Shown here piece by piece: positions 34,047 to 53,120 of a stretch of DNA of 64,000 nucleotides. Source of the stretch: a virus (Duplodnaviria; Caudoviricetes); the IMG/VR virus record IMGVR_UViG_3300028197_000002; one strand, written 5' to 3'. The notes beneath the pieces are model-generated. The model worked only from the letters and a program-made list of their open reading frames with translations. It was not told the origin of the DNA and did no database searches. Made by a program: the position numbers and the translations under genes. Position 1 is the first letter of the stretch. The number at the start of each line of letters is the position of its first letter.

Positions 34047-35291
34047 ATGATGTCTAAGTGTAACTTTTGCGACATGCCAGCCGAAGATTGTGGGCCTTTA
34101 ATTGAAGGTGGTTCAGAAGAGAATAAAGCGTATATTTGTTTTAATTGTATTGAACAAGGACGAAAAATGCGTCCTGAAAAGTTTGTTCGAAGCAAAAGAA
34201 AACGCAAGGATGTTAATTTACCTAATCCTAAAGAAATTGTTAGTAAATTAGATCAATATATTTGTGGTCAAGAAGTGGCAAAAAGAGATTTGGCAGTTAG
34301 TGTTTACAATCACTATGTTCGTTTATTTGATTATGATTTAAAAGACACTATAAAAGGCAGTGAACTAGAAGACACTGTAATTGATAAAAACAATGTGTTG
34401 ATGGTAGGGCCAACAGGCTCAGGAAAAACTCTGTTAGCTTCCACATTGGCATCTATCATTGATGTTCCTTTTGCAATCGGAGATGCCACAACAGTCACCG
34501 AAGCCGGATACGTAGGTGAAGACGTTGAGAATTTACTATTAAAATTGATAAGAGCAGCAGATATGGATATTGAGTCTGCTGAACATGGAATACTTTATAT
34601 TGATGAAATAGACAAAATAGGAAGAACTTCTGGGAACAGATCAATTACGAGAGATGTTTCAGGTGAAGGAGTTCAACAGTCTTTACTAAAGCTATTGGAA
34701 GGAACTGTTGCAAATGTGCCTCCCGCAGGAGGACGAAAACATCCTGAACAAGAGTTTTTACAGGTTGATACTTCTAATATTCTTTTTATTTGCGGAGGAA
34801 CTTTCACAGGTCTGGGGGATATAGTTAAGAAAAGAATTTGTTCTGAAAAAAATAAAATTGGTTTTGGAAGTTCTGTAGGGTCTGTTGATGACAAAGATTA
34901 TTCAATAGATTATCAAGCTGAAGATTTGTTTGAATATGGCTTAATACCAGAGTTTGTTGGTAGATTGCCTAGTCAAACATTTTTAGAGGAATTATCGGAA
35001 GAAAAGTTAATTCATGTTTTAACTGAACCTAAAAATTCACTTTTAAAACAATATCAAAAACAATTTTTATACAGTGGAATAAATTTAAAGTTCACTAAAA
35101 AAGCAGTAGCAGAAATTGCCAAGATTGCACATGAGCAAAAAACTGGAGCTAGGGCTTTAAGAACTATTGTCTCAGGTATTATGAATCCTATTGTTTATGA
35201 CATTTTTGATATTAAAAGAAAAGAATTGACAATTGATGATAAAATTGTAAGGGGTGAAAAGAAAGTCGTTACAAAAGTTAAAGCTGCTTGA
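34047..35291 (+). CDS. clpX: ATP-dependent Clp protease ATP-binding subunit ClpX
   Basis: C4 zinc domain, GPTGSGKT, AGYVGEDVE, IDEIDK, RDVSGEGVQQ, RKHP, IGF ClpP-docking loop, TGARAL. Confidence 0.96.
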   Translation: MMSKCNFCDMPAEDCGPLIEGGSEENKAYICFNCIEQGRKMRPEKFVRSKRKRKDVNLPNPKEIVSKLDQYICGQEVAKRDLAVSVYNHYVRLFDYDLKDTIKGSELEDTVIDKNNVLMVGPTGSGKTLLASTLASIIDVPFAIGDATTVTEAGYVGEDVENLLLKLIRAADMDIESAEHGILYIDEIDKIGRTSGNRSITRDVSGEGVQQSLLKLLEGTVANVPPAGGRKHPEQEFLQVDTSNILFICGGTFTGLGDIVKKRICSEKNKIGFGSSVGSVDDKDYSIDYQAEDLFEYGLIPEFVGRLPSQTFLEELSEEKLIHVLTEPKNSLLKQYQKQFLYSGINLKFTKKAVAEIAKIAHEQKTGARALRTIVSGIMNPIVYDIFDIKRKELTIDDKIVRGEKKVVTKVKAA

Positions 35292-35328
35292 TTAAATTAC
35301 ATTTTTTGTTAAAGTGTAAGATGAATGG

Positions 35329-35400
35329 TCTTCGGTAGCACAATGGTAGTGCGGCAAACTGTTAATTTGTAGGTTGTAGGTTCGAGTCCTACCCGAAGAG
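35329..35400 (+). tRNA. tRNA-Asn(GTT); no encoded CCA
   Basis: Cloverleaf TCTTCGG/CCGAAGA, G discriminator, loop CTGTTAA, T loop TTCGAGT. Confidence 0.93.
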
Positions 35401-35431
35401 CTTGATAAATTTGCAAAAAAGGAGTCTTGTA

Positions 35432-35686
35432 ATGTTGCCGAGCATATCAGAAAAATCTCTAGACGCTTTGAGAATTGGAGTAAGTGAACATCATCACATT
35501 TCTCATTTGAGTGAATTAGGCGTTAGTCAAAAAGTAATTAACATATTGGATTCTGAAGGAGTTTTTAGCTTGGAAAGTCTTTTGAAGAAAACAAAAGAAG
35601 AACTGCTTTCTATTCCAAATTTTGGAGAAAAACAACTTTCCGTTTTATTTAAAGCTTTGGGTAATTACGAAAATTTAGGGCAATAA
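35432..35686 (+). CDS. Stand-alone RNA polymerase alpha-subunit C-terminal-domain protein
   Basis: LSELGVSQKVINILDSEGVFSLESLLKKTKEELLSIPNFGEK matches the alpha-CTD HhH pattern; GGAG RBS. Confidence 0.85.
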   Translation: MLPSISEKSLDALRIGVSEHHHISHLSELGVSQKVINILDSEGVFSLESLLKKTKEELLSIPNFGEKQLSVLFKALGNYENLGQ

Positions 35687-35701
35687 TCATAAATATAAAC
35701 T

Positions 35702-36433
35702 ATGATTGTTTCACATAGTAAAAAATTTATTTTTATACATATTCCAAAATGTGCAGGAACATCAATTAGAAGATCAATAGAGGATTATTTCTGCGAAAAT
35801 AACATGGAAAGAGACTTGATTTCTTTTAGGGATCACCACTGGGGCAAAAATAATGATCGCAATGTAGACTTAGCATGGAAGATAAAGCACAAAAAACTTA
35901 CAGAAAAGCAGATTGTTTTTTATAAAAAATTTAATCAACATTCGCCCTACAAGCGCATTGAGTCTGCATTTAAAAAAGAAAACATTAATTTAGATGATTA
36001 TTTTAAGTTTTCATTTTTTAGGAATCCTTGGGAAAGAAGGGTATCTCAATATTTTTTTGGAAAACAACAAGCTAAAAAAAATCGTTCTTTCTTTTTAAGA
36101 AATAAATACTACCAAGAGAGTTTTAAAAATTTTGCACTTTCACCACCGCCGTCACATCAATACGAATTTATTGTAAACTCTAGAGGCAAAATCGGCGTAG
36201 ATTTTATTGGTAGATTTGACAATCTGCAAGAAGACTTTGATTACGTTTGCGAAAGAATTGAAATTCCAAAAATGGAACTTTCTCATCGAAACAAAACAGA
36301 TCATGAACATTACATGGAATATTATGATGATGAACTTATGAATTCTTTTGCTTTAGAGTACGCAGATGATATCGAAGTGTTTAACAGGTTGCCAATCAAA
36401 CGGAGAGAAAATCCGGCGTGTGGAAGTCAATGA
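35702..36433 (+). CDS. Sulfotransferase family 2 protein
   Basis: FIHIPKCAGTSI, FSFFRNPWERRVSQY, DFIGRFDNLQED; C-terminal tail looks atypical. Confidence 0.88.
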   Translation: MIVSHSKKFIFIHIPKCAGTSIRRSIEDYFCENNMERDLISFRDHHWGKNNDRNVDLAWKIKHKKLTEKQIVFYKKFNQHSPYKRIESAFKKENINLDDYFKFSFFRNPWERRVSQYFFGKQQAKKNRSFFLRNKYYQESFKNFALSPPPSHQYEFIVNSRGKIGVDFIGRFDNLQEDFDYVCERIEIPKMELSHRNKTDHEHYMEYYDDELMNSFALEYADDIEVFNRLPIKRRENPACGSQ

Positions 36434-36587
36434 TAACGTCACACCTAGATTCCGTTAGCAGAAAGTGTGAAAAGACTAACATCAAAACCTTATTGCAACC
36501 GTCATCAACCTGACACACTTCATCTTCGGTTGACTTCCTAAATTATCTATGATACTTTAATTTTGTTTTTTTAAAAAAAAGATTGGG

Positions 36588-36616
36588 TTTACATTTTGCT
36601 GAGTAAAAGATATAAT
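36588..36616 (+). promoter_or_regulatory. sigma70-type promoter
   Basis: TTTACA-17 bp-TATAAT upstream of 36688. Confidence 0.65.
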
Positions 36617-36687
36617 GGTTAAGGTGCAAGGTTAAAAAGTTCAGAAAGTCAAAAGCACCAATTTGATTTTCACCGAAGGAGCGACTT

Positions 36688-37107
36688 ATGAGATTTGTTT
36701 TCCTTTCTGCCTTAGCTGTGTTCTTTCTGATCCCTCAGACAGACGCAGAGGCTCGAAGATGGAGAAGAAGCAGCAGTAATAATTATTATTATAATACATC
36801 TAGCAACACATCTAGTGTTGACAATGTTACTGCTCAAGGTGTGGCAAACACTATGGCATCACGGAATCGTGTTGCTCATTTTGGAGGACATGCTGGACTT
36901 TATGAAGGTTGCGGAAGCGGCTGGAGTCAAGACCAAGCCTATAGGAACTGTTGCTACTCCTCATCAGGAATGCCTACAGTAGACGTAGGATATGCACAGT
37001 CTCCAAGTGGAATGTGGTATTGTTGTAGAAGGTATAGCAAATACGGCAATTCTATGGCAAATTCTTCAACTGTAGTACACACTCCGGTAGTCATTATTGA
37101 AGAATAA
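36688..37107 (+). CDS. Secreted Cys-containing protein of Planctomycete-like type
   Basis: Signal peptide (AEA); TAQGVA..HFGG..YEGCG..AYRNCC..VDVGYAQ..WYCCRRY. Confidence 0.65.
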   Translation: MRFVFLSALAVFFLIPQTDAEARRWRRSSSNNYYYNTSSNTSSVDNVTAQGVANTMASRNRVAHFGGHAGLYEGCGSGWSQDQAYRNCCYSSSGMPTVDVGYAQSPSGMWYCCRRYSKYGNSMANSSTVVHTPVVIIEE

Positions 37108-37120
37108 TAATTAAATTTAT

Positions 37121-37171
37121 AATTAAGCGACCAATGGTTTGTGGGTCTGCCATTGGTCGCTTAATTTTTTT
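37121..37171 (+). terminator. Rho-independent terminator directly before the sigma RBS
   Basis: 17-bp perfect stem AATTAAGCGACCAATGG / CCATTGGTCGCTTAATT plus T run. Confidence 0.85.
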
Positions 37172-37183
37172 GGAGCTTATGTT

Positions 37184-38077
37184 ATGGAAAACATTAATTT
37201 TAAAGATTTCTTTGTAGATGACTCTTTTTATACAAAAAAAGGTCAAGCAGAGATACTTAAAAACAATTTGGATTTAGAAGTTCAAAAAAAAATTCTTTCT
37301 AGTAATAACGATCTTTACCGTTGTAATTGTGGCGTTCTTCTAACAAGAGAACAAGAGTTTAGTTTATTTAGAAGGTTTAATTATTTTAAATATAGAATTT
37401 CTGAAATTGAAAAATGGAAAACATCTAATTCTAATAAAGAAAGAGAACGAAATAAAAAAATTAAATCTATTTTAGACATTAGAGAAATAATTATAAAATG
37501 CAATACAAGATTAATGATAAACCCAGCTAAAAAATTCTCTAATTCTCAAGACTTGGATTCTGTTGAGTGTTCTGAATATATTTCAAATGGATATGTGCAT
37601 TTGTTTAAAGCTATAGATAAATTTGATTACAATAGAGGCTTTAAATTTTCTACTTATTTTTGTAATGTATTGTTTAGAAATTTATCAAGAGACAAACAAG
37701 TTCAAATAAATAAAACTATGAATCACCATGAGCTTGATGAAAAAACTATTTCGGTTGCTGCGGAAGATGAGACTCATCAAGAGCGAATTGCAAGTTATAA
37801 TGAAGTGTTCTTGAAGAATTTGATTGCCAAATTAGAAATAGAAGATAATGCTAATAGATTAAAAAAAAGATTTAGACGATGCGACAGTCGCCACATTTCG
37901 AGATCTGTTGTTTTGAAAAGAACTTATGGAATTTGTGGTGAAAGAAAGCATACTTTGAGAGAAGTGAGTAAAGATTTAGGGGTTTCTCATGAAAGAATAA
38001 GGCAAATAAGAATACAAGCAGAAGAATTTATAAAAAGTAATTTTAATACTTTCGAACTTTACGACCCAATGTTTTAA
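37184..38077 (+). CDS. sigma70-family RNA polymerase sigma factor
   Basis: Region 2 KAIDKFDYNRGFKFSTY, region 4 TLREVSKDLGVSHERIRQI; LLTREQEFSLFRRFNYFKY recalled as Planctomycete-type. Confidence 0.9.
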   Translation: MENINFKDFFVDDSFYTKKGQAEILKNNLDLEVQKKILSSNNDLYRCNCGVLLTREQEFSLFRRFNYFKYRISEIEKWKTSNSNKERERNKKIKSILDIREIIIKCNTRLMINPAKKFSNSQDLDSVECSEYISNGYVHLFKAIDKFDYNRGFKFSTYFCNVLFRNLSRDKQVQINKTMNHHELDEKTISVAAEDETHQERIASYNEVFLKNLIAKLEIEDNANRLKKRFRRCDSRHISRSVVLKRTYGICGERKHTLREVSKDLGVSHERIRQIRIQAEEFIKSNFNTFELYDPMF

Positions 38078-38089
38078 AGAGATATTTAA

Positions 38090-38752
38090 ATGAATATTAA
38101 CATCCCACCTTTTTATGCTTATATTCGTAGAGAGCATATGTTTGCCTACGAGAGTAATTTTGGAGAGTTTGAATATTGTTATGTTTTTGGAGCTAGAAGC
38201 CCTGCTGGAAGGGCTACGATGTTTCATTGCATGACAGAAGGAGGCGCACAAAGAGCAAACGTTCCTATTTCCGCCTTAGTCCACAATACAGATGATGAGG
38301 GTGGCTGGCAAGATCCTGAAGATTTAAGTTTAGAAGAGTTGCAACTTTGGGATTCATTTGGCAATAACATGAATGTTGTAGTTTTTGATTATTTGGCCTT
38401 TAAAAGGTGTCGAGTTGTATTTAGAGATAAAAGAGAAATTTGGGGAACTTATTTGATGACGTTTGATTGGGAAGACAACCCATATACAGATGCTCCTCAA
38501 GACTATAAGAATGCTCATCTTATAAAGTTAGATAATGGTTGCTTTGCTCTTCAACCCAATAATAGAATACTTTGGAGAGATAGTAATTTCATTACAAATC
38601 CATTAGATATTGATAATCTACCTAAATATAAAGTAGATAAAAAAGAGTTTGTTTGTGAAGTCTCAGATAGATGGACAGCGGAAGATACTGATTGTTTTTA
38701 TTATGATATTATAAATCATAATGACAAGGAAAATAGTGAAATCGACTCATGA
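38090..38752 (+). CDS. Conserved phage hypothetical protein
   Basis: NINIPPFYAYIRREH..LQLWDSF..LDNGCFALQPNNRI, recalled from aquatic phages; function unknown. Confidence 0.7.
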   Translation: MNINIPPFYAYIRREHMFAYESNFGEFEYCYVFGARSPAGRATMFHCMTEGGAQRANVPISALVHNTDDEGGWQDPEDLSLEELQLWDSFGNNMNVVVFDYLAFKRCRVVFRDKREIWGTYLMTFDWEDNPYTDAPQDYKNAHLIKLDNGCFALQPNNRILWRDSNFITNPLDIDNLPKYKVDKKEFVCEVSDRWTAEDTDCFYYDIINHNDKENSEIDS

Positions 38753-38942
38753 TTATGTAGTGGGACTCATAAGACCCACTACTAATTCTATTATTAAAGA
38801 TGTAAGAATTCCACGAAAAGTTTTTAAAGGCGTTGATTGTGGTGATTTTCTTACCATGAGTCAGGTGATTGATGAATGGCTTTTAAAGGATGGATTTGAA
38901 GGCTTTGCTGTTTGGAGCATGAAAATGGTTCCGAGAAATTAG
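38721..38942 (+). CDS. Small hypothetical protein
   Basis: ORF track. Confidence 0.45.
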   Translation: MTRKIVKSTHDYVVGLIRPTTNSIIKDVRIPRKVFKGVDCGDFLTMSQVIDEWLLKDGFEGFAVWSMKMVPRN

Positions 38943-38995
38943 CTTTACTTCTTTTTTTTTTAAGATAGAATATGTTGGAATAAAATATCATTATT

Positions 38996-39355
38996 TTGAG
39001 GGAATTTGCCATGAGTAAGTTAATTGATGGCGGATTTCCAATTTACATTCTTGATGACGACTCTATAGAATATTTGCAAGAAGATTGCGATCACTCAAGA
39101 TTTTGGAGTGAAACGGTCAGTAAAAAAGTTTCTCAAAACACAGGCATACCCTTGAGAATTTTAATTGATATGCCGTATTGTCAAAGAAGAGCTAGAGTTG
39201 TTGGAAGTAGGCTTTATTACGGCGAAAAGATGTCTGCTTCTCTTTTTAATAAAATAAAGAATATTTTAGAAATGGATTTGGTTTTGGTTCATGATGAACA
39301 TGAATCAAGATGTAAAATTAGCTTGATGCAATTCAATGGAATGAAAAGAATTTAA
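38996..39355 (+). CDS. Hypothetical protein
   Basis: ORF track; probable ATG start at 39011. Confidence 0.6.
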   Translation: MREFAMSKLIDGGFPIYILDDDSIEYLQEDCDHSRFWSETVSKKVSQNTGIPLRILIDMPYCQRRARVVGSRLYYGEKMSASLFNKIKNILEMDLVLVHDEHESRCKISLMQFNGMKRI

Positions 39356-39356
39356 A

Positions 39357-40655
39357 ATGAAAAAAACAAAGGAGCAAAAAAGAAGAACTAAAAATAAAAA
39401 TAAATTAAAAAGAAAAGCAAATAAGAAGAAACTTTTAAATGCTGCTTTTTTCAGAGCCATAGATTTTCTTGATGTCAAGAAATATTTCATGTCTTTGCCT
39501 AATGAAGTACGCAGGACTTTTTTAAAAGAAAGTTCTTGGCCTAGCTACAAAATTATTTTTCATTCTGGATGTAGAATGAAACAGTATAAACTTCACAGTC
39601 AACTTAAAGAAAGTCTTTTATTGACGATTGATAAAACACTTGAAAAAGTAGAATTAGAAGTTCAAAATAGAAAAATAAAATTTAATGACGTTCCTTTTCT
39701 TTTGACCGTTTATGGACTTTTTAATTTTTCATCTAAATTAGAAATAAAAAATGATAGTCATGAATTGAAAAAGATAAAATCTGTGTCCTTAAAAGCTATT
39801 GAAAAAATTCGTCCTCTTTTGCAAGATGCTAGGAAGTCTTATTTGGATGAATTTGTTAATTGTGCAATGCCTGTTGCTTTGATGCTTTTTGATTATGAAG
39901 GAGGGCATTATCCTGATTTTAAGATTCATAAAGACTCAAAAAATCGTGCATTTCCTGTAATATGCATTACTCCTTTGATTTTGAAAAAAGAAAAACTAAC
40001 CACTAAAGATGGTGGCGATAGGTTTGGGTTTCCTTGTGTTAATTTTGAAACGGATGGACTAAAAGTAAACCCTGTATTCTTCCCTTCAGGGACAATTGAA
40101 AACGAAGATATATTACACGTATACATTCAAGAACATGCAATAAGTAGACTAAAAGAAAGACTTGATCTTCCTATTGGGAAAAAACACTTGATGGAATTTT
40201 TAGGTAGGTCATTAGCAAACCCTGTTGTTGTGGGAAAAGATGGAGATTCTTTTTTAATTGAATATAAATTAGTTGGATATAAATTAGGCTATCTGATTGT
40301 TTCAAACGAAGGAAAGTACGCTTTAGTTAGAAGTTTCAAATTTATAACAATGACTGGAACTCCTGAGTTTAAGATGATAACGAAAAAACTTCGAGCATCT
40401 AAACATGACATGACCCATCTGAAACTTGATCAATTAGATTCGATGTTGTCTTCTGATTTATTCGAAGACCAGTTTATAAAAGATGTCCTTGTTGATTGTG
40501 ATTTGGGGCATCTTAATGAATTAGCGGAGTTAATGAAATCTCAAAGTGATTCTGATTTTGATTTTGATTTTAGCGAGCCATTAAAAATAGCAGATGATGT
40601 TAAAAAGTTACTTAAATTGGATGATTATCAAAATCCCAAATCAACAATAACATAA
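39357..40655 (+). CDS. Hypothetical protein (432 aa, basic N-terminus)
   Basis: Long ORF; YIQEHAISRLKERL motif; no confident family. Confidence 0.7.
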   Translation: MKKTKEQKRRTKNKNKLKRKANKKKLLNAAFFRAIDFLDVKKYFMSLPNEVRRTFLKESSWPSYKIIFHSGCRMKQYKLHSQLKESLLLTIDKTLEKVELEVQNRKIKFNDVPFLLTVYGLFNFSSKLEIKNDSHELKKIKSVSLKAIEKIRPLLQDARKSYLDEFVNCAMPVALMLFDYEGGHYPDFKIHKDSKNRAFPVICITPLILKKEKLTTKDGGDRFGFPCVNFETDGLKVNPVFFPSGTIENEDILHVYIQEHAISRLKERLDLPIGKKHLMEFLGRSLANPVVVGKDGDSFLIEYKLVGYKLGYLIVSNEGKYALVRSFKFITMTGTPEFKMITKKLRASKHDMTHLKLDQLDSMLSSDLFEDQFIKDVLVDCDLGHLNELAELMKSQSDSDFDFDFSEPLKIADDVKKLLKLDDYQNPKSTIT

Positions 40656-41248: not shown

Positions 41249-41254
41249 GTAGGT

Positions 41255-41260
41255 TATTTA
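41255..41260 (-). promoter_or_regulatory. T4-like late promoter core (TAAATA)
   Basis: CATAAATA on the minus strand, 6 nt before the kinase ATG. Confidence 0.4.
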
Positions 41261-45597: not shown

Positions 45598-45651
45598 CCA
45601 ACTAATCTTTTATGAAATTTGCATTTGACAATGATGCCAATTGAAATTTGT

Positions 45652-46536
45652 TTAAGTATCGCATTGCCCAAGGATTTTTTTATCGGCGTGAGTTGAGTTT
45701 TGTTGGTTATATTTAAAATTGTTTAAAATCATTAAAGTTTCTTTTATCCAATCTTGTTTCGAATTTGTTTTTTTCATAACTAATGAACGAAATCCTTCTG
45801 GAGGATGTTCATCATTATCAGAAAACCACAACAACTCTGGATTTACCAACAAATTAACAAGATTATTTTTTTTATAATAATCATAAAATTCTGGAACTTT
45901 AAAAGGATGATTTTCTTCGTAAGCAACACCAAGAAGCATAGGCCAAGCTATTTCTAAAGTCATAGAAAATTGATAATAATTATCGTTATAAGAAAGAACG
46001 TTGAAAATATGTTGCCAAAAACTTTTTGGGAATCTTTTAATAGTCTCGCTTTTCACTATGCATTGTGAAGATGGAGGAAAACAAACAAATGATGGTGGTG
46101 TCATTACTATATTTAAATTCATGTAATTCCACATTTCTTTAAACTGATATAGGTAGTTGTTTCTTTTTTCAAAATTATAAATGGCAGTAGTTTTTGAATT
46201 CCAATGATTCTCTATATCTCCATTCAAATTATAAAAATGATCCTTCAATTTAATTTTTTTTAATTTTTCAAAATTATGTGACATTGAAAATTGTTGATGG
46301 AATGAATTTTCGTGACCATGTATAAATCCTACATATTCAGGCATTTCATTCCAACGAGTCAAAATATAATGAATATAAGATCTAAATTCCTCCGCCCCCA
46401 CATTTTCAATTTTTTCAAAATTCTTTATTGGCAAGTTCTTTTTAGATTTGGAAACTACCAAATAATCAATCCCAGATTTTTCTATCCAAGAGATTTCTTC
46501 ATTATAATGAGATGAAACTATTATCAAGTCGTTCAT
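45652..46536 (-). CDS. DUF3431-like protein
   Basis: IVSSHYNEEISW, NVGAEE..YIHYI, FIHGHENSFHQ. Confidence 0.8.
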   Translation of the reverse strand: MNDLIIVSSHYNEEISWIEKSGIDYLVVSKSKKNLPIKNFEKIENVGAEEFRSYIHYILTRWNEMPEYVGFIHGHENSFHQQFSMSHNFEKLKKIKLKDHFYNLNGDIENHWNSKTTAIYNFEKRNNYLYQFKEMWNYMNLNIVMTPPSFVCFPPSSQCIVKSETIKRFPKSFWQHIFNVLSYNDNYYQFSMTLEIAWPMLLGVAYEENHPFKVPEFYDYYKKNNLVNLLVNPELLWFSDNDEHPPEGFRSLVMKKTNSKQDWIKETLMILNNFKYNQQNSTHADKKILGQCDT

Positions 46537-46590
46537 AAATTTATTATAGTATAAAAATCTTTTTGTTTACTTGTGGGATGAAAAAAGGTC

Positions 46591-46649
46591 TTAATATTAA
46601 AAACAAAAGTGATTTAAGTTTTTGACTTTAGAAGTATTAATTATTATTT
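46591..46649 (+). repeat. Direct repeat copy 1
   Basis: 46599-46649 is identical over 51 bp to 47874-47924; includes the ferredoxin last codon and stop. Confidence 0.92.
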
Positions 46650-47021
46650 GGCGGCTTTGAGTTCTGCCAAATTCTGCGCCGTTTCGACGAGGCGATCCCA
46701 ATTTTCCTCTATGTACGCCGGAGGCCCACCCATATCGGCCTGTGCCACTGCTATCTCTTCAGTAGGAACCATCTCGATAGCATCCCAAGGACAAACTTTA
46801 ACATCATACATTTTACCCTTATTACCGGGAACATGAATGCATTGTTCACAACCTATACAAGTAGATAGATCAATCTCGCACCATTGAGTTACTCCCTGTT
46901 TTATCTGGAATATACAATCGACAGGGCATACTTCTAAACAAGCCTCACAACCGGTGCAATTATCTGCCTGAATGATTGCTAATTCTTTTGGAATCTTTTT
47001 TCTCACTGCTTTTTTTGCCAT
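46644..47021 (-). CDS. 2[4Fe-4S] dicluster ferredoxin
   Basis: CTGCEACLEVCP and CIGCEQC...VCPWD; visibly GC-richer than flanks. Confidence 0.92.
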   Translation of the reverse strand: MAKKAVRKKIPKELAIIQADNCTGCEACLEVCPVDCIFQIKQGVTQWCEIDLSTCIGCEQCIHVPGNKGKMYDVKVCPWDAIEMVPTEEIAVAQADMGGPPAYIEENWDRLVETAQNLAELKAAK

Positions 47022-47061
47022 AAATCAACCCCGTCTGCACAAATCTATCTGTAATTAGATA

Positions 47062-47101
47062 TTAATATTAAAAATAAAAGTGATTTAAGTTTTTGACTTT
47101 A
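47062..47101 (+). repeat. Direct repeat copy 2 (partial)
   Basis: TTAATATTAAAAAtAAAAGTGATTTAAGTTTTTGACTTTA, 39/40 identical to 46591-46630. Confidence 0.9.
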
Positions 47102-47161
47102 TAATGAAAAAATTTTTTTTAATGGTACAATAGAATCTTAACTTTGGGATAATTTCAATCA

Positions 47162-47833
47162 ATGTATGACGCAATTGTGATTAGTGACATTCATTTAGGA
47201 AGTAGCGTTTGTGAAGTCAAACAGCTTTATGCTTTTTTGAACAGTGTGGCATGTGATACTAAAAAAATTATTATTAATGGTGACTTTTTTGACAATTTAA
47301 ACTTTAGTCGTTTGAAAAAAAGTCATTGGGATGTTTTGTCATCTCTCAGAAGGATGAGTAAAGATGTTGATATTATTTGGATTAGAGGAAATCATGATGG
47401 AGAGGCCGAAATAATTTCGCATTTAATAGGTTTGGATTTTAAAGACGAGTATTCATTTTTTAGCGGCAGAAAAAATATTCTTTGTCTCCATGGTGATAAA
47501 TTTGATGATTTTATTTTCAAATATCCAAAAACTACTAAAGTCGCAGATTTTATTTACAGAACTATTCAAAGATTTGATAAAAATTTTCTTCCCAGATTAA
47601 TTAAACACAGATCAAAAATGTACCTTAGATGCAATGAAAACATGATTTTGAATTCTGTGAGATATGCGAAACAAAAAGGAGCAGATATAGTTTGTCTTGG
47701 CCATACCCATCATGCTGTTATTGACAAAAAAGATAAGGATGTGTGGTATTACAATTCTGGATGTTGGACTGAAAAACAATGCTCTTATCTGTCTATTAAA
47801 GATGGTGTAGTTGAGTTGAATTATTTTTCGTAA
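47162..47833 (+). CDS. Metallophosphoesterase (LpxH/UDP-2,3-diacylglucosamine hydrolase-like)
   Basis: ISDIHLG, INGDFFD, RGNHD, LHGD, LGHTH, YNSGCW. Confidence 0.88.
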   Translation: MYDAIVISDIHLGSSVCEVKQLYAFLNSVACDTKKIIINGDFFDNLNFSRLKKSHWDVLSSLRRMSKDVDIIWIRGNHDGEAEIISHLIGLDFKDEYSFFSGRKNILCLHGDKFDDFIFKYPKTTKVADFIYRTIQRFDKNFLPRLIKHRSKMYLRCNENMILNSVRYAKQKGADIVCLGHTHHAVIDKKDKDVWYYNSGCWTEKQCSYLSIKDGVVELNYFS

Positions 47834-47873
47834 TTATGTTGCACAAATATTTTTTATTTCTTTTTGATTGTGA

Positions 47874-47924
47874 AAAAACAAAAGTGATTTAAGTTTTTGA
47901 CTTTAGAAGTATTAATTATTATTT
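47874..47924 (+). repeat. Direct repeat copy 3
   Basis: AAAAACAAAAGTGATTTAAGTTTTTGACTTTAGAAGTATTAATTATTATTT. Confidence 0.92.
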
Positions 47925-48012
47925 AATCCTGTTTTTTTGGTATTTTGGGCAATTTGAAAAATATTGATAGCAAGATTATGTCGATTGTCATTCATTTGAA
48001 TGGCATTTTTGC

Positions 48013-48040
48013 TTGACCAAATTGTGAAAATCGGTACAAT
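48013..48040 (+). promoter_or_regulatory. sigma70-type promoter
   Basis: TTGACC-16 bp-TACAAT. Confidence 0.7.
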
Positions 48041-48112
48041 GGTCACTTCGCAACGGAGTGCGAATTTTCTAAAATTCGGAACTCTTTTCCTATTTGCCTA
48101 ACGGAGTGCAAA

Positions 48113-48334
48113 ATGCTTTTCTATGTTTCTTGTTCTAAAAAACAAACAATGATTCAATCAAAAACCCATAAAGATGCTGCTTTAAAATATATTTCTGACA
48201 ATAAAGATTATGGGAACATTATTTGCGTTTCACATCAAGAGATAAACCGTGACAATAGCGATTCTCAAGTTTTTTTCCTAGCAGATGCTTTAAAACCTGA
48301 AAAGAGCATTGAAAATTTTAGAGTTGTTTACTAA
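48113..48334 (+). CDS. Small hypothetical protein
   Basis: GGAG RBS inside the repeated AACGGAGTGC. Confidence 0.6.
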   Translation: MLFYVSCSKKQTMIQSKTHKDAALKYISDNKDYGNIICVSHQEINRDNSDSQVFFLADALKPEKSIENFRVVY

Positions 48335-48451
48335 ACAAATAGGTTGCAATTAAATAAAAAAAATATTTGTTTACTTTACTTTTAATAAAAATTTAACTAA
48401 AATATTATTACTTTCGCCAACTGACTATAAACTCAACAAAAAAAATACATC

Positions 48452-48462
48452 TAGTTTATGGT
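48452..48462 (+). promoter_or_regulatory. TAGTTTRYGGT motif 1
   Basis: TAGTTTATGGT after an A-tract. Confidence 0.65.
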
Positions 48463-48594
48463 TTAGTTGCTAAAGAGAGATATGGCACGATCAAATAAAA
48501 GTGCTGTGTCTTTTTTTGCCTTAAAACATCTACTTTACTTTTTGAAAATTTTAACCTAAAATATTTTTGATTTGACAATTAAAAAAAATCTAGC

Positions 48595-48605
48595 TAGTTT
48601 ATGGT
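48595..48605 (+). promoter_or_regulatory. TAGTTTRYGGT motif 2
   Basis: TAGTTTATGGT after an A-tract; TTGACA at 48572. Confidence 0.65.
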
Positions 48606-48650
48606 TTAGTTGTTAGGTCAAATTACTTGTTGTTCTTGAAAGGAACTCTA

Positions 48651-49646
48651 ATGCCTGCTACTAAGAAGAAGTCTGAGTCTGCTAAAGAAGTTAGTGTGCC
48701 TATGGCAGAAAGAAAGCCAAGGTCTAAGCTGATTGGTGTATTTGCAGGAAAAATGAAACCTGCTCCAAAATCCATCAAGAAAAATGAACGTCCTGTAATT
48801 GATTTGCCTAGAGAAATTCAAGAACAATTTGTTCGTTTTGCTGCAACTAAAAATCTGTTTGATGTTTTTGAAGATAGAAAGAAAGAGCAAACTGGTCTTC
48901 TTTATTCATCTATTTTTGAAAAGTTTGTTGACCAATTATGGGCAACGAAGAAACAGCCTCAGAATCCATCTATTGTGGTAGAAACTAATGGCAAAGTTGA
49001 TGCCAAGGGTCAATTTATTGTTCAGGTGGGCAGTAAAGTTAAGATCAACATGCCTCCTGTTGATGAAGATGATGATTCCCCTGATGAAGTGATGATTGCC
49101 GCATTGGAAAACATGGGCGTTAAAAGAGAGAATGCTGAATCTTTGATTGAAAAAGAAGTTTCTTTTGTTCCTCAATGGTCGTTGAATTTTACCGAAATGC
49201 TTCATGGTGCTACTGTTGCAGGCAAGTTCCGAGAAGCTACTGATGGTCAAATCTCTGCTAGTGAAGCATTGTTTTCTTCTATTAAAGGCATGGATGAAAA
49301 TGGGGAAAGTCTTGATGCAAAAGGAAGACTTGCTTTGCTTAAAAAGTTTTCTGTAGAAGATTGGCAACTGCTTGCTAAGAATATTGATAGTCATACCTCC
49401 TACTATCCTCAATTACTTTCGGGTGGAGATTTTCTTGATCGAGTTTGCGATTATGCAGATTTCCGAGAAGAATTAGATGCTATTTTGACTATGTTCCGAC
49501 CTGTTCATTTTTGCCAGCGGGTAAAGTTCGCTGTAGACGCAACAGGTGAGGATCGTCAAAATAAATTGGTTGCCGAAGCAATTTCTGCAATCACTGGCGA
49601 AGAAAACAATCATGATATTCAATTATCATACATGGGTCGTTCATAA
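48651..49646 (+). CDS. Hypothetical protein
   Basis: Long ORF, GAAAGGA RBS before ATG 48651. Confidence 0.75.
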   Translation: MPATKKKSESAKEVSVPMAERKPRSKLIGVFAGKMKPAPKSIKKNERPVIDLPREIQEQFVRFAATKNLFDVFEDRKKEQTGLLYSSIFEKFVDQLWATKKQPQNPSIVVETNGKVDAKGQFIVQVGSKVKINMPPVDEDDDSPDEVMIAALENMGVKRENAESLIEKEVSFVPQWSLNFTEMLHGATVAGKFREATDGQISASEALFSSIKGMDENGESLDAKGRLALLKKFSVEDWQLLAKNIDSHTSYYPQLLSGGDFLDRVCDYADFREELDAILTMFRPVHFCQRVKFAVDATGEDRQNKLVAEAISAITGEENNHDIQLSYMGRS

Positions 49647-49706
49647 AATTTAGAAGTGGTTTCTAAGTTTTGTTGTTTGTGTGTTTTTCCTTGAAAGGGA
49701 ATGTAA

Positions 49707-50063
49707 ATGTCGAAGACTGCTGAAAAGATTAACAAGAGTAAGATGGTTCGTGATTATCTTGCCGCCAATAATGATGCTGATACAAATAGTGTTGTAGAGC
49801 ATTTTAAGAGTGAAGGGATTGAGATTAACAAGCAATTTGTTTATCAAACCCGAACTCATATCAAGAACCCAAAGAAGCGTTCTTCTACCAATCCGAAAGC
49901 GAAGTCTTTCGCTAAGGCTAAGGCTAAAGCTAAAACTTCTTCTAAGCCAAAGATGGATCATTATGATTCTTTGGTTGCTGCCAAGAGGTTGCTTGAGTCT
50001 GTTGGGGGTGATTTGGGTCAAGCAAAAAAGAGTCTAGACACTCTTACCAAACTCATTTCGTAA
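49707..50063 (+). CDS. Small basic nucleoid-type protein (Planctomycete-like family)
   Basis: NKSKMVRDYL..GIEINKQFVY..AKAKAKAK..DSLVAAKRLLESVGGDLGQAKKSL. Confidence 0.65.
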   Translation: MSKTAEKINKSKMVRDYLAANNDADTNSVVEHFKSEGIEINKQFVYQTRTHIKNPKKRSSTNPKAKSFAKAKAKAKTSSKPKMDHYDSLVAAKRLLESVGGDLGQAKKSLDTLTKLIS

Positions 50064-50150
50064 GATGGTCTGGAACACTCAAAACACTCATTTCGTTGCT
50101 GAGAGGGGAAATAAGCCTCCAACTCAAAGCAACGAAATGAGTTTGTTTTG

Positions 50151-50840
50151 TTATATGTATTTTGAACTTCTGGAAATTTTACATGTATCATCAAACATAA
50201 TTAAACTGTCTATTGCTGAGATTAAGGCATCAGAAGTTAGGTTTAACATTTGTTTGTCTGATCTTAATTCGTGAACTATTTCTAATTGCAAAGAATTTAC
50301 GAATTGGTTTGGATACCACTTTTTGAAAAGTTGATTTAAATTATTTTTTGCCCTTCCTGCATATCTTTTTTTACCTTCATAAACACCAAATCCTTCATCT
50401 TCTAAAAAACTTACAAAGGCACTTTTTATTTTTGGAGAGCAAGTGTGGGAATATGAACTTGGGCCATGTCCGTACCCAACAATTATGTCAAGTTCTGGAT
50501 CATCTACATATTTTCTTACGCTGTCTCCACATCCATGAATATTTATTATAAAAACTCTTTCATCTAATGTTCTTTGTATTCTTGCAACATTTCTCAATAT
50601 TGGCTCTAAAAATTCTTCTCTTACAACGTCTTCTTGAATGTGAGATATGTTATTGCAGTCTGCCCTGTCATTTAGATGATCGACAGAATATCCTTTTTTC
50701 CACCCTCTATTAATAACAGAAAAAAGATTCATTTCTGATGCAACTAACTCTACAAGATAATCTGTATTTAAGTCATCTGGCCCATGTGGTGCAACTAATA
50801 CTACTGGCAAATCGCCTTTTGATACGCTAACTCTTTCCAT
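50151..50840 (-). CDS. N-formylglutamate amidohydrolase-like Zn hydrolase
   Basis: LVAPHG, INIHG, SLQLEI. Confidence 0.55.
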   Translation of the reverse strand: MERVSVSKGDLPVVLVAPHGPDDLNTDYLVELVASEMNLFSVINRGWKKGYSVDHLNDRADCNNISHIQEDVVREEFLEPILRNVARIQRTLDERVFIINIHGCGDSVRKYVDDPELDIIVGYGHGPSSYSHTCSPKIKSAFVSFLEDEGFGVYEGKKRYAGRAKNNLNQLFKKWYPNQFVNSLQLEIVHELRSDKQMLNLTSDALISAIDSLIMFDDTCKISRSSKYI

Positions 50841-50889
50841 TTTGACCTTTAAAATTAATATTATTTGTATCGAACATAAAAAAATAAAG

Positions 50890-50900
50890 TAGTTTACGGT
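50890..50900 (+). promoter_or_regulatory. TAGTTTRYGGT motif 3
   Basis: TAGTTTACGGT upstream of the sigma-like gene. Confidence 0.65.
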
Positions 50901-50913
50901 ACTAATTCGCAGA

Positions 50914-51930
50914 ATGATTATTTCTTTCGAAAGGAAACCTATGAATAATTTAGTTATTTCCCATAATAAATTATCAAAATCTGATGTTTTTGAAATCTCT
51001 CAAGAATTATCTGCTGTAAATTTAATTCTTAAAAAATATCATCAGAAGATGGCGACCAGAAAAGGCAGAAAAGGTTATCGAGACAGTGAGGGGAATAGTT
51101 TTACCGTTATTGATCTATTAAACTTAATTTATAAAAATAGAAAAGAAGATTGTATTAAAGTAAAAGGAATTTTAATTGATTGTGAAGATGTAGAGAAACT
51201 ATGCAATATTAAAGAAAAAGAATATTTACTTTTAAGCAACTATTCTCGTATGTTTTACGCTTTGTCTAAAAAACATTTTCTTTCTACTTCCATGTATGAC
51301 ATGGAAGATTTACAGAACGAATGTATAACTGCTTGTTTAAAGGCAATGTATGGATATGATGCTGAAACAGCAGGCAGGCAGCAAGTCGCTTCTCTTTTCA
51401 CATTTCTCTATAGGTCTGTGAATAATCATTTAATTAAGCTGAGTCGGACTATGCTTTCATCTCTAGACCGCAAAGCAGTAAAAATCAAATGTAAATTTAT
51501 GGACTTGAAAAATGAAAATCCCAATCTTACTTTTGATGATTTGGTTTCTAAATTAAGTTTATCTCCAAAAGAATTGAAAATATTAACCTGTGCTTTATCT
51601 TCAACCGTTTATCGAGAATCAGATTGCAATGGGGAAGATAAATCCTTGATTATTAATCAAGTTGTTGCAGAAAAAGAAAAAGAGTTGGAATTAGTAGAAT
51701 CTACTGTTATGAAAAACATGGGAGAAATTATTTTTACTTTATCTGAATTGGAGAAAGAAGTTTTACGGGGGTATTTGAATGAGAAATACCCTAGTGGAAA
51801 AAAGTCAAATCGAGGAATTGGCAAATTTGCAAAAAATTTAATTAATCCAAAAACTAAAAAACCATACAGTAGAATGGCTATAAGTTATGCTTGGAAGCGG
51901 GTTCAGGAAAAAATTAAAAAGGCTGCGTAA
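50914..51930 (+). CDS. Divergent sigma70-like factor
   Basis: Region-2-like DMEDLQNECITACLKAMYGYD..FTFLYRSVNNHL; region-4-like LSELEKEVL..YSRMAISYAWKRVQEKI; ends KKAA; start may be 50941. Confidence 0.65.
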   Translation: MIISFERKPMNNLVISHNKLSKSDVFEISQELSAVNLILKKYHQKMATRKGRKGYRDSEGNSFTVIDLLNLIYKNRKEDCIKVKGILIDCEDVEKLCNIKEKEYLLLSNYSRMFYALSKKHFLSTSMYDMEDLQNECITACLKAMYGYDAETAGRQQVASLFTFLYRSVNNHLIKLSRTMLSSLDRKAVKIKCKFMDLKNENPNLTFDDLVSKLSLSPKELKILTCALSSTVYRESDCNGEDKSLIINQVVAEKEKELELVESTVMKNMGEIIFTLSELEKEVLRGYLNEKYPSGKKSNRGIGKFAKNLINPKTKKPYSRMAISYAWKRVQEKIKKAA

Positions 51931-51943
51931 AAAAAAATAAAAG

Positions 51944-51954
51944 TAGTTTGCGGT
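51944..51954 (+). promoter_or_regulatory. TAGTTTRYGGT motif 4
   Basis: TAGTTTGCGGT upstream of the RuvB-like gene. Confidence 0.65.
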
Positions 51955-51980
51955 ATTTTTACCCTGAAGGAGAAAAACTA

Positions 51981-53120
51981 ATGCTTGAAAATTCATCCCA
52001 AGTCCAAAATGAGTTACTATTTAGAAAATTGACTGTTGAAGAAAGAAAATGGAAAATCTCCAGAAAGAATCCCGAATGCCCATTAAATAAATTCATTGGC
52101 AATCCCAAGGCTATCAGAAGGCTCGCTAGGGCTGCTTTTTCTGCTATGGGCAATAGGAATAGAGATTGTTCTGATTACTCTCTAGCTGTTTGTGGGCCTC
52201 CATCAACGGGTAAGACTTATTTGACGAAATTATTTGCTAAAACTATAGGTTTGCCATTAGTTGTAATCGAGCCTCAAACAGTAAAAAGAGTACAAAATAT
52301 TTTTGATGAAATTGCTTTGACTTGTCGTGAATTTTCTTGTGATGACATAGTTCAAGCTGGAGAATTGACGCTTAAGGCGGATGATAAAGGAAAGTTCTCG
52401 TTACCTCCAGTAATTGTTTTTATAGATGAAGTTCATAATCTTAAGTCAAATGTGGTTCAAGGTCTTTTGAAAGCAACAGAACCTAATGATAGGATTATGA
52501 TTACGGAAGAAGGTCAGCAAATTGCTACAAATAAAGTTTGTTGGATGATTGCTACAACAGATCGTGGAGATTTGTTTGATGCTTTCGACACTAGGTTTCA
52601 AAAAGTTAATCTTAGACTATATTCTAAAGACGAAATGGCTAAGATTGTCCAAATGAATAATTCTGATTGGGATATGGATGTTTGTAGGTTAGTTGCGACA
52701 TATAACCCTATTGTCCCAAGAGAAGCGATTGCTTTTGCTAAAGACATGCGCGTTGAACATGAAATGAATCCATCTGAGTGGCTGAATGTTGCCAAAAGAA
52801 CAGCGGAGGATCATGGAATAGATGAATTTGGAATGACCTATGCCAGATTGAATGTTCTTAAAGCATTAGGGCGATCAACGATGTCAGCATCACAGATGCC
52901 ATTTGTTGTTCATGTTAAAGAAGATGAATTGAAAAAGTATATTATGCCTCCTCTACTTGCAAGGACTCCTGACCAACAAGTTCCTTTTGTAACTGTTTGT
53001 AGCAGAGGATATTCTATAACAAAGGCTGGACTTGCAGAGTTAGACAAGAGAGGGATTTCTCATAGGGGACTTAAAGCAATGCCGGAGTCGGTCGCAGAAA
53101 TGTTTACGGATGCTGCATAA
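51981..53120 (+). CDS. RuvB-like AAA+ ATPase (Holliday junction helicase family)
   Basis: GPPSTGKT, FIDEVH, IATTDRG..FDTRF, RLYSKDE, GIDEFG, SRGYSIT winged-helix tail; ends DAA. Confidence 0.8.
   Translation: MLENSSQVQNELLFRKLTVEERKWKISRKNPECPLNKFIGNPKAIRRLARAAFSAMGNRNRDCSDYSLAVCGPPSTGKTYLTKLFAKTIGLPLVVIEPQTVKRVQNIFDEIALTCREFSCDDIVQAGELTLKADDKGKFSLPPVIVFIDEVHNLKSNVVQGLLKATEPNDRIMITEEGQQIATNKVCWMIATTDRGDLFDAFDTRFQKVNLRLYSKDEMAKIVQMNNSDWDMDVCRLVATYNPIVPREAIAFAKDMRVEHEMNPSEWLNVAKRTAEDHGIDEFGMTYARLNVLKALGRSTMSASQMPFVVHVKEDELKKYIMPPLLARTPDQQVPFVTVCSRGYSITKAGLAELDKRGISHRGLKAMPESVAEMFTDAA

Follow-up and report, generated by a model that had tools for sequence, protein, structure and literature searches.

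The window analysed here (the whole stretch of DNA, 64,000 nucleotides) derives from a marine T4-like huge phage of roughly 370 kb, and it encodes a ClpX unfoldase that ends in Ala-Ala (AA), together with a sigma-like protein and a RuvB-like ATPase with the same ending. The question raised by this locus is whether such endings are degradation signals that the virus writes into its own proteins and reads with its own ClpX. In the preliminary description they were taken as parts of a proteolytic timer, in which the phage ClpX borrows the host ClpP to remove an early sigma factor and an early ATPase, and finally itself. The four C-termini on which that proposal was built (KVKAA, KIKKAA, FTDAA and, for the ORF 31105-31788, KRKTA) are read from the sequence as they had been described. 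The proposal as a whole survives in part: the AA ends are non-random and the ClpX is complete, whereas the early gene class and the host ClpP as the only partner are not supported. The conserved Ala-Ala feature is real, and a degron function of the encoded AA ends is plausible, judging from sequence. The features of the locus are collected in Table 1.

Table 1. Features of the AA-tailed locus and related elements (window positions unless another sequence is named)
Feature	Position	Strand	Details
Protein without family assignment	31105..31788	+	C-terminus AKRKTA (basic tail plus TA)
Sigma70-type promoter-like site, clpX	33986..34013	+	TTTACT, 16 nt, TATAAT; consensus match only
Phage ClpX	34047..35291	+	414 aa from ATG 34047; C-terminus KVKAA
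ClpX Zn finger	34059-34148	+	CxxC...CxxC, residues 5-34
ClpX pore-1 GYVG	34506-34517	+	Aligned to E. coli ClpX
ClpX pore-2 TRDVSGEG	34647-34670	+	Aligned to E. coli ClpX
ClpX RKH	34734-34742	+	Aligned to E. coli ClpX
ClpX IGF loop	34857-34865	+	Residues 271-273 from ATG 34047
ClpX Ala-Ala codons and stop	35283..35291	+	GCT GCT TGA
tRNA-Asn (GTT)	35329..35401	+	ARAGORN; 38 nt 3' of clpX
Phage-specific promoter-like motif, A-tract + TAGTTTACGGTA	50878..50901	+	Upstream of sigma-like gene
Putative divergent sigma-70-family protein	50941..51930	+	C-terminus KIKKAA; family profile, Pfam, Foldseek
Same phage-specific motif (A-tract + TAGTTTACGGTA type)	51928..51955	+	Begins at sigma-like stop codon; upstream of RuvB-like gene
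RuvB-like AAA+ ATPase	51981..53120	+	C-terminus FTDAA; Foldseek, AF2 model
Same phage-specific motif (A-tract + TAGTTTACGGTA type)	53118..53143	+	Immediately 3' of RuvB-like stop codon
Divergent ClpP-like gene	L163 3485-4102		33.5 kb upstream, in same genome lineage; Pfam CLP_protease

The phage ClpX and its tail

To judge by its sequence, the phage protein is a full ClpX, with all the elements expected for reading an Ala-Ala carboxylate and for docking to ClpP. It reaches 519.9 bits with NF003745 (cut-off 359) and 492.3 bits with TIGR00382 (cut-off 370.75), both NCBIfam ClpX equivalogs, and its ATPase motifs are intact; the start, which has been corrected, is most likely ATG 34047, preceded by GGAGG. 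Six residues of E. coli ClpX (Y153, V154, T199, V202, R228 and H230, E. coli numbering) have a role in reading the Ala-Ala carboxylate of ssrA (PMC7652416), and in the alignment all six are identical in the phage protein. Among 118 members of the ClpX clade, GYVG, the pore-2 loop and the [IVLM]GF ClpP-docking loop are conserved in every one, RKH in 117 and the zinc-finger motif in 116; in the phage ClpX itself Pfam zf-C4_ClpX gives 26.5 bits, marginally below its cut-off of 27. The IGF loop claimed previously is indeed in place, and a complete ClpX unfoldase is a core gene of this phage clade.

The AA C-terminus is present in 117 of the 120 closest ClpX homologs. The entropy of the tail is about 0 bits at positions -1 and -2 and 2.2-3.4 bits at positions -3 to -12, the last two positions being invariant across sequences that are 60-96% identical while the neighbouring ones vary. 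Terminal Ala is also common in cellular ClpX (51 of 80, of which 30 end in SA), and for this reason the ClpX tail may have an older role other than that of a degron. Related to this, the tree places the phage ClpX with the xSA-ending ClpX of Planctomycetota type, in a group which is A-terminated throughout. As to whether AA was inherited unchanged from host homologs, a point raised in the preliminary description, the last Ala is shared with cellular ClpX but the penultimate one is found in the phage clade only, and the sequences compared indicate that this penultimate residue is the only clade-specific part of the tail.

The other tailed proteins

The sigma-like protein (start corrected, most likely ATG 50941; terminal codons GCT GCG TAA) is probably a divergent member of the sigma-70 family. 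Its family profile matches sigma-H in the PDB (E 1.7e-5), Pfam Sigma70_r2 is matched by 4 of 10 homologs, and the best 35 Foldseek matches are all sigma factors; on the other hand, the Pfam search of the window's own protein gave no sigma match, TIGR02937 gave 26.3 bits, below the cut-off of 42.9, and region 4 was not found by sequence. In a model of modest confidence a helix extends to residue 337 of 338. The homologs (n=12) end in AA (6), VA (5) or TG (1).

The ATPase encoded next to it (start corrected, most likely ATG 51981; terminal codons GCT GCA TAA) is RuvB-like by architecture, according to its predicted structure, and not a RuvB ortholog. The top 44 Foldseek matches are RuvB, with TM by target of about 0.70-0.79; the AF2 model has a pLDDT of 90, the final five residues being coil and the last block having a pLDDT of 74. 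Identity as a RuvB ortholog was rejected on the NCBIfam RuvB equivalogs, with which it scored 56.2 bits (cut-off 282) and 54.5 bits (cut-off 299), both far too low. Among 120 homologs the C-termini include AA (21), VA (10), VV (10), AV (4) and IA (3), with A or V terminal in 64, and AA recurs behind unrelated tail sequences as well as in more distant IMG/VR relatives. Many homologs end in FSEN or AEGE, on contigs that, going by equal lengths of the longest contig in the two hit tables, apparently also carry an AA-tailed ClpX.

The conservation in homologs which the preliminary description had called for was thus found, with AA on ClpX, AA or VA on 11 of 12 sigma-like proteins and A or V on RuvB-like ones at the frequencies given, and these comparisons support the view that the AA ends are non-random and under purifying selection. 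The ORF 31105-31788, whose last codons are ACT GCT TAA, had no match in Pfam, and its ortholog in the relative G001 (42% identity) ends in AKRTA.

Frequency of AA ends

Ala makes up 3.8% of the residues in the window. Composition predicts 0.13 AA ends among its 91 ORFs of at least 60 aa, and 3 are seen (Poisson P 3.6e-4). A hypergeometric test on the marginals (4 ORFs A-terminated and 7 with A at position -2) gives P 1.1e-3, and no other terminal dipeptide of the window is as strongly enriched. AA is also the top terminal dipeptide in G001 (10 ends against 0.75 expected, P 8e-9) and in LR756511 (15 against 4.0, P 2e-5). When six ClpX-carrying phage sequences are pooled, 44 AA ends are counted against 12.35 expected (P 2e-12), a ratio that is 3.8 for ORFs of at least 100 aa and 4.5 for those of at least 150 aa. 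With the window left out, and ClpX and RuvB-like genes likewise, 34 ends remain against 12.2 expected (P 2e-7). Most genomes of the group that carry ClpX show a 3-13 fold excess; in G004 and G007 the ratios are 1.3 and 2.8 fold, both non-significant. The 56 kb beside the window, from a near-identical strain, hold 83 ORFs, none of which ends in AA, so the known tails of this lineage are just the three. The genome-wide count proposed in the preliminary description agrees with it in the window and in the enriched relatives but not in the flanking 56 kb, and the enrichment is uneven between genomes.

The controls lie near expectation: counts at shifted positions are close to it, bacterial flanks have 5 AA ends (4.5 expected) and distant phage loci have 2 (1.6 expected). 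Three ClpX-lacking contigs, two of them incomplete (CheckV 64% and 75%), have 4 against 3.4.

Of 148 families present in at least three genomes, only 2 include more than one AA-ended member, which means that most AA-tailed proteins are lineage-specific, with function unassigned. Among the 44 AA-ended proteins the residues at position -3 include E (8), K (7) and L (6), and in the three tails of the window they are K, K and D, with no Leu as in the LAA of ssrA. A charged residue at this position weakens the reading of the tails as C-motif 1 signals without excluding it, since in E. coli the terminal dipeptide weighs most in ssrA recognition (PMC7652416).

Peptidase partner and tmRNA

As had been claimed, clpP was not found in the window (tblastn, two ClpP queries, E > 0.9). 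The hijack of host ClpP is nevertheless not supported in the form proposed, because the same lineage has a divergent ClpP-family gene of its own, kept also by the complete relatives that carry ClpX. Its product exceeds the cut-off of Pfam CLP_protease (92 bits) and fails the NCBIfam ClpP models (85 bits, cut-off 249, and 71 bits, cut-off 309). Aligned with S. aureus ClpP, Ser and His correspond, Glu stands at the Asp position and the first 46 residues are unaligned. In the ClpX-carrying phage genomes searched, no canonical ClpP was found and this divergent protein was the only ClpP-like one.

Several relatives encode a tmRNA, the tag being GTNSYAMAA in G001, GTVNYAMAA in G005 and G008, and ANPEFAMAA in LR756511; SmpB is encoded by one relative, and the adaptor SspB was looked for and not found. 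With their AA-ending tags, these tmRNAs would supply a second, simpler class of substrates for ClpX.

Proposed explanation and alternatives

We propose, with a probability of about one half, that the encoded AA and VA tails are ssrA-like (C-motif 1) degrons, read by the phage ClpX with a ClpP-like peptidase of host or phage. The phage ClpX, paired with host ClpP or with the divergent ClpP-like protein, would engage these tails, unfold the proteins and degrade them, so that a small and lineage-variable set of phage proteins would be short-lived. The invariant AA tail would let ClpX be degraded by its own kind, which would make it self-limiting, as with the C-terminal tag of ClpA in ClpAP, and the same machine would clear the products tagged by the phage tmRNA. 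More tentatively, and with some doubt on our side, the parts could form a virus-encoded proteolysis code, in which a self-limiting ClpX selectively destroys a variable set of phage proteins with encoded ssrA-like tails, the sigma-like and RuvB-like ones among them, as well as the tmRNA-tagged products; if so, the virus would set protein lifetimes in infection independently of the host ClpX.

It is also conceivable, although unlikely, that the phage ClpX serves mainly in quality control, disposing of trans-translation products of phage or host tmRNA in the course of a lengthy infection with intense translation, the AA tails being side effects or minor clients. The MAA-ending tags of G001, G005, G008 and LR756511 and the intact ssrA-reading residues of ClpX are in keeping with this, and huge phages with tmRNA and SmpB (PMC7162821), as well as phage G with ClpX, a ClpP-like protein and tmRNA (PMC12484599), are already known. 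However, disposal of this kind leaves unexplained both the invariant AA of ClpX and the several-fold excess of AA ends. ARAGORN found no tmRNA in the ClpX-carrying G002, G004 and G007, and G005 and G008 have tmRNAs where the search found no ClpX. Quality control and encoded degrons are mutually compatible.

ClpX remodels the MuA transpososome without ClpP, and a role of this type, in which the tails would give it a grip on RuvB-like hexamers or sigma-RNA polymerase complexes, or else an inherited structural or auto-inhibitory ClpX tail, is quite unlikely here. The widespread terminal Ala of cellular ClpX, the A-ended group in which the tree places the phage protein and the search of the ClpX-carrying phage genomes, which found no canonical ClpP, would all fit. 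The [IVLM]GF loop, kept in all clade members, argues instead for the use of a ClpP partner, and a structural ClpX tail does not account for AA enrichment on unrelated proteins.

We regard it as improbable that host proteases only (ClpXP, ClpAP, FtsH or Lon) read the tails, the phage exploiting the host ssrA pathway and its ClpX being unrelated to them. MuA and lambda O are degraded by host ClpXP via terminal signals (PMC8138137), and VA- or IA-ended RuvB-like proteins also occur on contigs where the ClpX search found none, but the enrichment of AA is seen in ClpX-carrying and not in ClpX-lacking sequences, and selection on the AA tail of the phage ClpX would have no explanation. Chance with shared ancestry, that is, a few AA ends inherited once and an excess due to composition or ORF calling, is already disfavoured and very improbable: the first observation was post hoc and the enrichment is uneven, with none in the flanking 56 kb, but the last two ClpX positions are fixed where their neighbours vary, AA recurs behind unrelated RuvB-like tails, and the composition-matched, marginal-matched, shifted-position and other-genome controls are all near expectation.

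Comparison with known systems

The encoded-degron reading places the phage tails beside the ssrA/C-motif 1 degrons (E. coli ssrA LAA, cleaved RseA VAA and Caulobacter CtrA AA), with which they share AA or VA and a free carboxylate, and the phage ClpX has every residue through which E. coli ClpX contacts the dipeptide in its recognition complex. They differ in that here the virus encodes the reader as well as the tagged proteins, and in that the ssrA tag has Leu at position -3, where the phage tails are usually charged.

In work attributed to Maglica et al. 2008, ClpAP reportedly degrades its own ClpA unfoldase by way of a tag at the ClpA C-terminus. The likeness lies in an AAA+ unfoldase that bears its own recognised C-terminal signal; that case concerns ClpA, whereas for the phage ClpX the argument is one of conservation only (117/120). 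To our knowledge, no role of autodegradation has been described for ClpX. Autodegradation of unfoldases is mentioned in PMC8138137, whose degron table also lists terminal signals for phage substrates of host ClpXP, namely MuA (RRKKAI), lambda O and P1 Phd. These phages use the host ClpX, whereas here the phage supplies it and the signal is of the ssrA-like class. Among the tails described here, only the AKRKTA end of the ORF 31105-31788 is similar to the MuA-type signal (C-motif 2) in its basic tail, a resemblance only.

Bacillus megaphage G is likewise a huge phage with ClpX and tmRNA (PMC12484599). Its clpX adjoins a ClpP-like gene, unlike in the window, its ClpX ends in PEKAE instead of AA, its tmRNA tag ends in QVA, and no pattern of AA tails has been reported for it. 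Genes for tmRNA and SmpB in huge phages were described by Al-Shayeb et al. 2020 (PMC7162821), where Clp proteins are not mentioned; the relatives studied here have tmRNA as well, and one of them SmpB. The link between the tag ending, the ClpX tail and the encoded AA tails is not described in that paper. The conserved AA end of ClpX and the several-fold excess of this end on other phage proteins suggest that this clade of huge marine phages may run its own tag-directed programme of protein destruction.

Promoter-like sites and gene timing

The sigma-like and RuvB-like genes had been regarded as early, and this was not borne out: both are preceded by the phage-specific promoter-like motif, as opposed to the sigma70-type site at clpX. 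The order of the timer and the self-removal of ClpX are pure inference. The phage-specific motif has 7 copies in the window, and the one at 51928 overlaps the sigma-like stop codon without dictating the two Ala codons before it.

C-terminal Ala-Ala in ClpX-carrying huge phages

Conserved, selected and proteome-enriched C-terminal Ala-Ala (AA) ends are a real feature of a clade of ClpX-carrying huge phages. In the window they are found on ClpX, a sigma-like protein and a RuvB-like ATPase, and the four C-termini named in the preliminary description (these three and the basic tail of a further ORF) are correct as listed in the table of features. With a probability of about one half, such ends would be ssrA-like degrons (as in the tmRNA-encoded tag read by ClpXP) recognised by the phage ClpX, which would also limit itself through its own tail.

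ClpXP-regulated proteolysis through terminal tags is a central control mechanism in bacteria, and to our knowledge the phages described up to now either supply ClpXP clients (MuA, lambda O) or inhibit host proteases. If the degron reading is true, this would be the first virus to bring along the reader, the tmRNA that writes the tags and the substrates that bear them, and C-terminal AA would be a simple rule flagging short-lived proteins in the genomes of uncultured huge phages. Phage tmRNAs have been described (PMC7162821), as has the ClpX and ClpP-like pair of phage G (PMC12484599); the AA-tail pattern is described in neither of these papers.

Coordinates of the features discussed in the text
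Feature	Sequence	Coordinates	Strand	C-terminus
clpX	window	34047-35291	+	KVKAA
Sigma-like gene	window	50941-51930	+	KIKKAA
RuvB-like ATPase gene	window	51981-53120	+	FTDAA
ORF with basic tail	window	31105-31788		AKRKTA
Second sigma factor	window	37139-38077		DPMF
tRNA-Met (CAT)	window	25433-25506		
tRNA-Asn (GTT)	window	35329-35401		
A-tract, 4-6 nt, TAGTTT[A/G][C/T]GGT[A/T]; all before genes	window	48452, 48595, 50890, 51944, 53132, 56949, 58107	+	
CLP_protease-family gene (205 aa)	L163, flanking DNA of a near-identical strain	3485-4102		
Canonical ClpP	G009, a relative	~83025-83603		
Downstream protein	L002, locus of LR756511.1	6405-7322		

Identity of the AA-tailed proteins

The phage protein is a true ClpX, with 520 and 492 bits in the two NCBIfam equivalog models, whose cut-offs are 359 and 371. 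Its alignment to E. coli ClpX displays the zinc finger, the Walker motifs and the pore-1 GYVG, pore-2, RKH and IGF loops, the last of which had already been noticed as retained. Tyr153, Val154, Thr199, Val202, Arg228 and His230 contact the Ala-Ala carboxylate of ssrA (Fei et al., PMC7652416), and all six residues are conserved in the same alignment.

The sigma-like protein is probably a divergent sigma-70-family member: Pfam Sigma70_r2 is matched by four of ten homologs, a PDB search with the family profile gives sigma-H (E 1.7e-5), and Foldseek with the AF2 model (pLDDT 71) returns a sigma factor in each of its 35 best matches. A tblastn search of the phage collection with this protein gave no match. 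The ATPase has a RuvB-like fold (model pLDDT 90), its top 44 PDB matches being RuvB with TM by target of about 0.70-0.79; its 56 bits, far below the cut-off of 282, show that it is not a RuvB ortholog. When viral contigs were scanned, a single RuvB-like sequence returned no matches and the alignment-based scan did return them.

Conservation and ancestry of the tails

AA is present at the end of 117 of the 120 closest ClpX homologs, which are 60-96% identical, metagenomic and often located on contigs of 100-360 kb. Once two atypical rows are excluded (a 731-aa fusion and a 393-aa protein truncated at its C-terminus), positions -1 and -2 have an entropy of about 0 bits against 2.2-3.4 bits at -3 to -12, which points to strong purifying selection confined to the two terminal residues. 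Among 12 sigma-like homologs six end in AA, five in VA and one in TG, so that AA or VA is kept in 11 of 12. RuvB-like homologs are more varied (n=120: AA 21, VA 10, VV 10, AV 4, IA 3 and a few other xA); many unrelated sequences precede AA, and other subclades end in FSEN or AEGE. In more distant IMG/VR relatives AA or VA is again present on the RuvB-like protein, on the sigma-like protein upstream and on a protein of 290-320 aa downstream.

A protein of roughly 290-320 aa, encoded just downstream of the RuvB-like gene in several relatives, also tends to end in AA, VA or AV. Copies are present in LR756511.1, where by eye it looks ArdC-like with an HExxH motif, and in the relative G002; genes of 295-322 aa in loci L095, L096 and L100 match by position. 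No clear counterpart was seen in the window.

A cause at the DNA level was rejected, as the A-tract plus TAGTTTRYGGTA motif starts only at the stop codons or beyond them, the Ala pairs use different codons (GCT GCT, GCT GCG, GCT GCA) and the amino-acid pattern persists in distant homologs. Nor is AA general to phage ClpX, since that of phage G ends in PEKAE.

The preliminary description had considered that AA might be inherited from host homologs; of the two residues, the last Ala is shared with cellular ClpX and the penultimate one is specific to the phage clade. The 80 closest cellular ClpX proteins (loci L003-L082), at most 56% identical, end in A in 51 cases (SA 30, TA 9, DA 4, IA 3, AA 2), as do 29 of 70 full-length ClpX sequences that represent clusters at 50% identity. 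When the tree is built with the last 12 residues removed, the window ClpX falls within a well-supported phage clade where AA is found in 35 of 35 phage rows; these rows split from the rest, with weak support, together with a Planctomycetota-type clade in which each of 19 rows ends in xSA, xTA or xPA. Since all ends in both groups carry A, the last Ala is an old ClpX trait and the penultimate Ala the mark of the phage clade, and the ClpX tail therefore weighs less as independent evidence of phage invention.

Many cellular ClpX proteins have a conserved C-terminal [K/E]-[S/T]-Ala, for which we know of no described function. These cellular Ala ends raise a wider question on ClpX tails in general. 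The abundance of ClpA is set by a C-terminal signal, and the invariant AA of phage ClpX together with the cellular xSA raises the question of whether ClpX abundance is set in a ClpA-like manner, which was not found addressed in the literature searched.

tmRNA, adaptors and candidate peptidase partners

ARAGORN predicts tmRNAs with the tags GTNSYAMAA in G001 (the relative whose ClpX is 67% identical), GTVNYAMAA in G005 and G008, and ANPEFAMAA in LR756511.1. The group thus encodes tmRNAs for AA-ended tags and a ClpX that would read them, and some of its proteins carry the same ends by direct encoding. No SspB was detected in five relatives, and the only SmpB was that of G004. The clearing of tmRNA-tagged products as the main job of the module is a rival, less likely than the degron reading; it would account for the tags and for a ClpX able to read them, and the AA ends encoded on the phages' own proteins lie outside it.

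The absence of clpP, as previously claimed, holds within the window, where tblastn found none with a ClpP from Pseudomonas or a ClpP-like phage protein as query, but not for the genome: a 37-kb upstream walk in the near-identical strain reached a CLP_protease-family gene 33.5 kb upstream, adjoining genes for a caspase-like peptidase (Peptidase_C14) and PhoH. Its product passes Pfam (92 bits) and is far under every NCBIfam ClpP cut-off and also under the ClpP-related head-protease model; it is not a canonical member of either type, ClpP or ClpP-type head protease. It retains the catalytic Ser and His, Glu occupies the Asp position and the first 46 residues do not align to ClpP. Orthologs (40% identical) are present in G002, G004 and LR756511.1, and the ClpX-carrying genomes examined yielded no canonical ClpP.

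The peptidase partner of the phage ClpX may be host ClpP or this ClpP-like protein. A less likely rival is that ClpX works as a remodelling motor by itself or that its tail is structural, which would suit the lack of a canonical phage ClpP or the last Ala shared with cellular ClpX, respectively; AA ends on other proteins are not covered by a structural role of the ClpX tail. An improbable further rival is that host proteases alone would read the tails.

The complete 297,725-bp IMG/VR contig of the huge phage G009 encodes a canonical ClpP (52% identical to that of Pseudomonas), and no ClpX was found in it.

Proteome-wide counts of AA ends

The window (G+C about 31%, about 90% coding with table 11, all three stop codons in use) comes from an uncultured marine T4-like huge phage of roughly 370 kb, according to the walk into flanking DNA of the near-identical strain. 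Ala accounts for 3.8% of its residues, and AA ends 3 of its 91 ORFs (P 3.6e-4); A is the last residue of only four ORFs, and no terminal dipeptide is more enriched than AA. As this observation is post hoc, the decisive test must come from elsewhere. No further AA end occurs in the 83 ORFs of the 56 kb of flanks. ORFs were called mechanically, in one and the same way, in nine phage sequences, the genome-wide counts being taken from relatives.

AA ends observed and expected in the window and in huge-phage relatives
Sequence	Size or completeness	ClpX	AA observed	AA expected	P
Window		yes	3	0.13	
G001	204 kb	yes	10	0.75	8e-9
G002	373 kb	yes	8	2.5	
LR756511.1	595 kb	yes	15	4.0	2e-5
G004	533 kb	yes	5	3.8	
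G007	195 kb	yes	3	1.05	
G005	64% complete	not found	0	0.9	
G008	75% complete	not found	1	0.65	
G009	100% complete	not found	3	1.8	

Pooled ClpX-carrying sequences have 44 AA ends against 12.35 expected (P 2e-12), and contigs without ClpX have 4 against 3.4, two of these three contigs being incomplete. The excess is 3.8 fold for ORFs of at least 100 aa and 4.5 fold for at least 150 aa; it persists without the window, ClpX and RuvB-like genes (34 against 12.2, P 2e-7) and is still significant when conditioned on the marginal A frequencies at -1 and -2. AA is near expectation at inward-shifted positions, and is not in excess in bacterial clpX flanks (5 against 4.5) or unrelated phage loci (2 against 1.6). 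The suspicion that these ends are not random is thus supported by the pooled counts of ClpX-carrying sequences, with no such excess in controls, and chance is a very improbable explanation of the pattern.

Enrichment is uneven among genomes. Of 148 families common to at least three genomes, only ClpX and the RuvB-like ATPase have two or more AA members, and the remaining excess sits in lineage-specific proteins. Pfam and PHROGs assign almost no function to the other AA-tailed proteins of G001, apart from one helicase-like protein and one DUF6011. In G005 (323,267 bp) terminal Ala is depleted, with 7 ORFs ending in A against 19.7 expected, and no AA end occurs despite its own tmRNA.

Promoters and timing

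Upstream of clpX, TTTACT-16-TATAAT is followed by a GGAGG ribosome-binding site, a promoter-like arrangement consistent with host RNA polymerase transcribing the gene. Seven copies of the A-tract plus TAGTTTRYGGTA motif are present in the window, among them one upstream of the sigma-like gene and one upstream of the RuvB-like gene. The stop codons of these two genes each mark the start of a copy; the motif is probably a phage-specific promoter. In this region a sigma70 scan found sites no more numerous than in shuffled sequence. The proposal that the sigma-like and RuvB-like proteins form an early class, removed by a proteolytic timer before ClpX itself, is not borne out as regards their early expression, the phage-specific motif being there and the sigma70-type site at clpX; if anything, the promoter sequences suggest that ClpX would be made before them.

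A second sigma factor, which matches Pfam Sigma70_r2 and r4, is encoded downstream of clpX at a distance of 2 kb and lacks an Ala tail. The product of the basic-tailed ORF has no Pfam match; its ortholog in G001 keeps AKRTA and is likewise located about 3 kb upstream of clpX. Two tRNA genes are present in the window, and that of tRNA-Asn begins 38 nt past the clpX stop codon.
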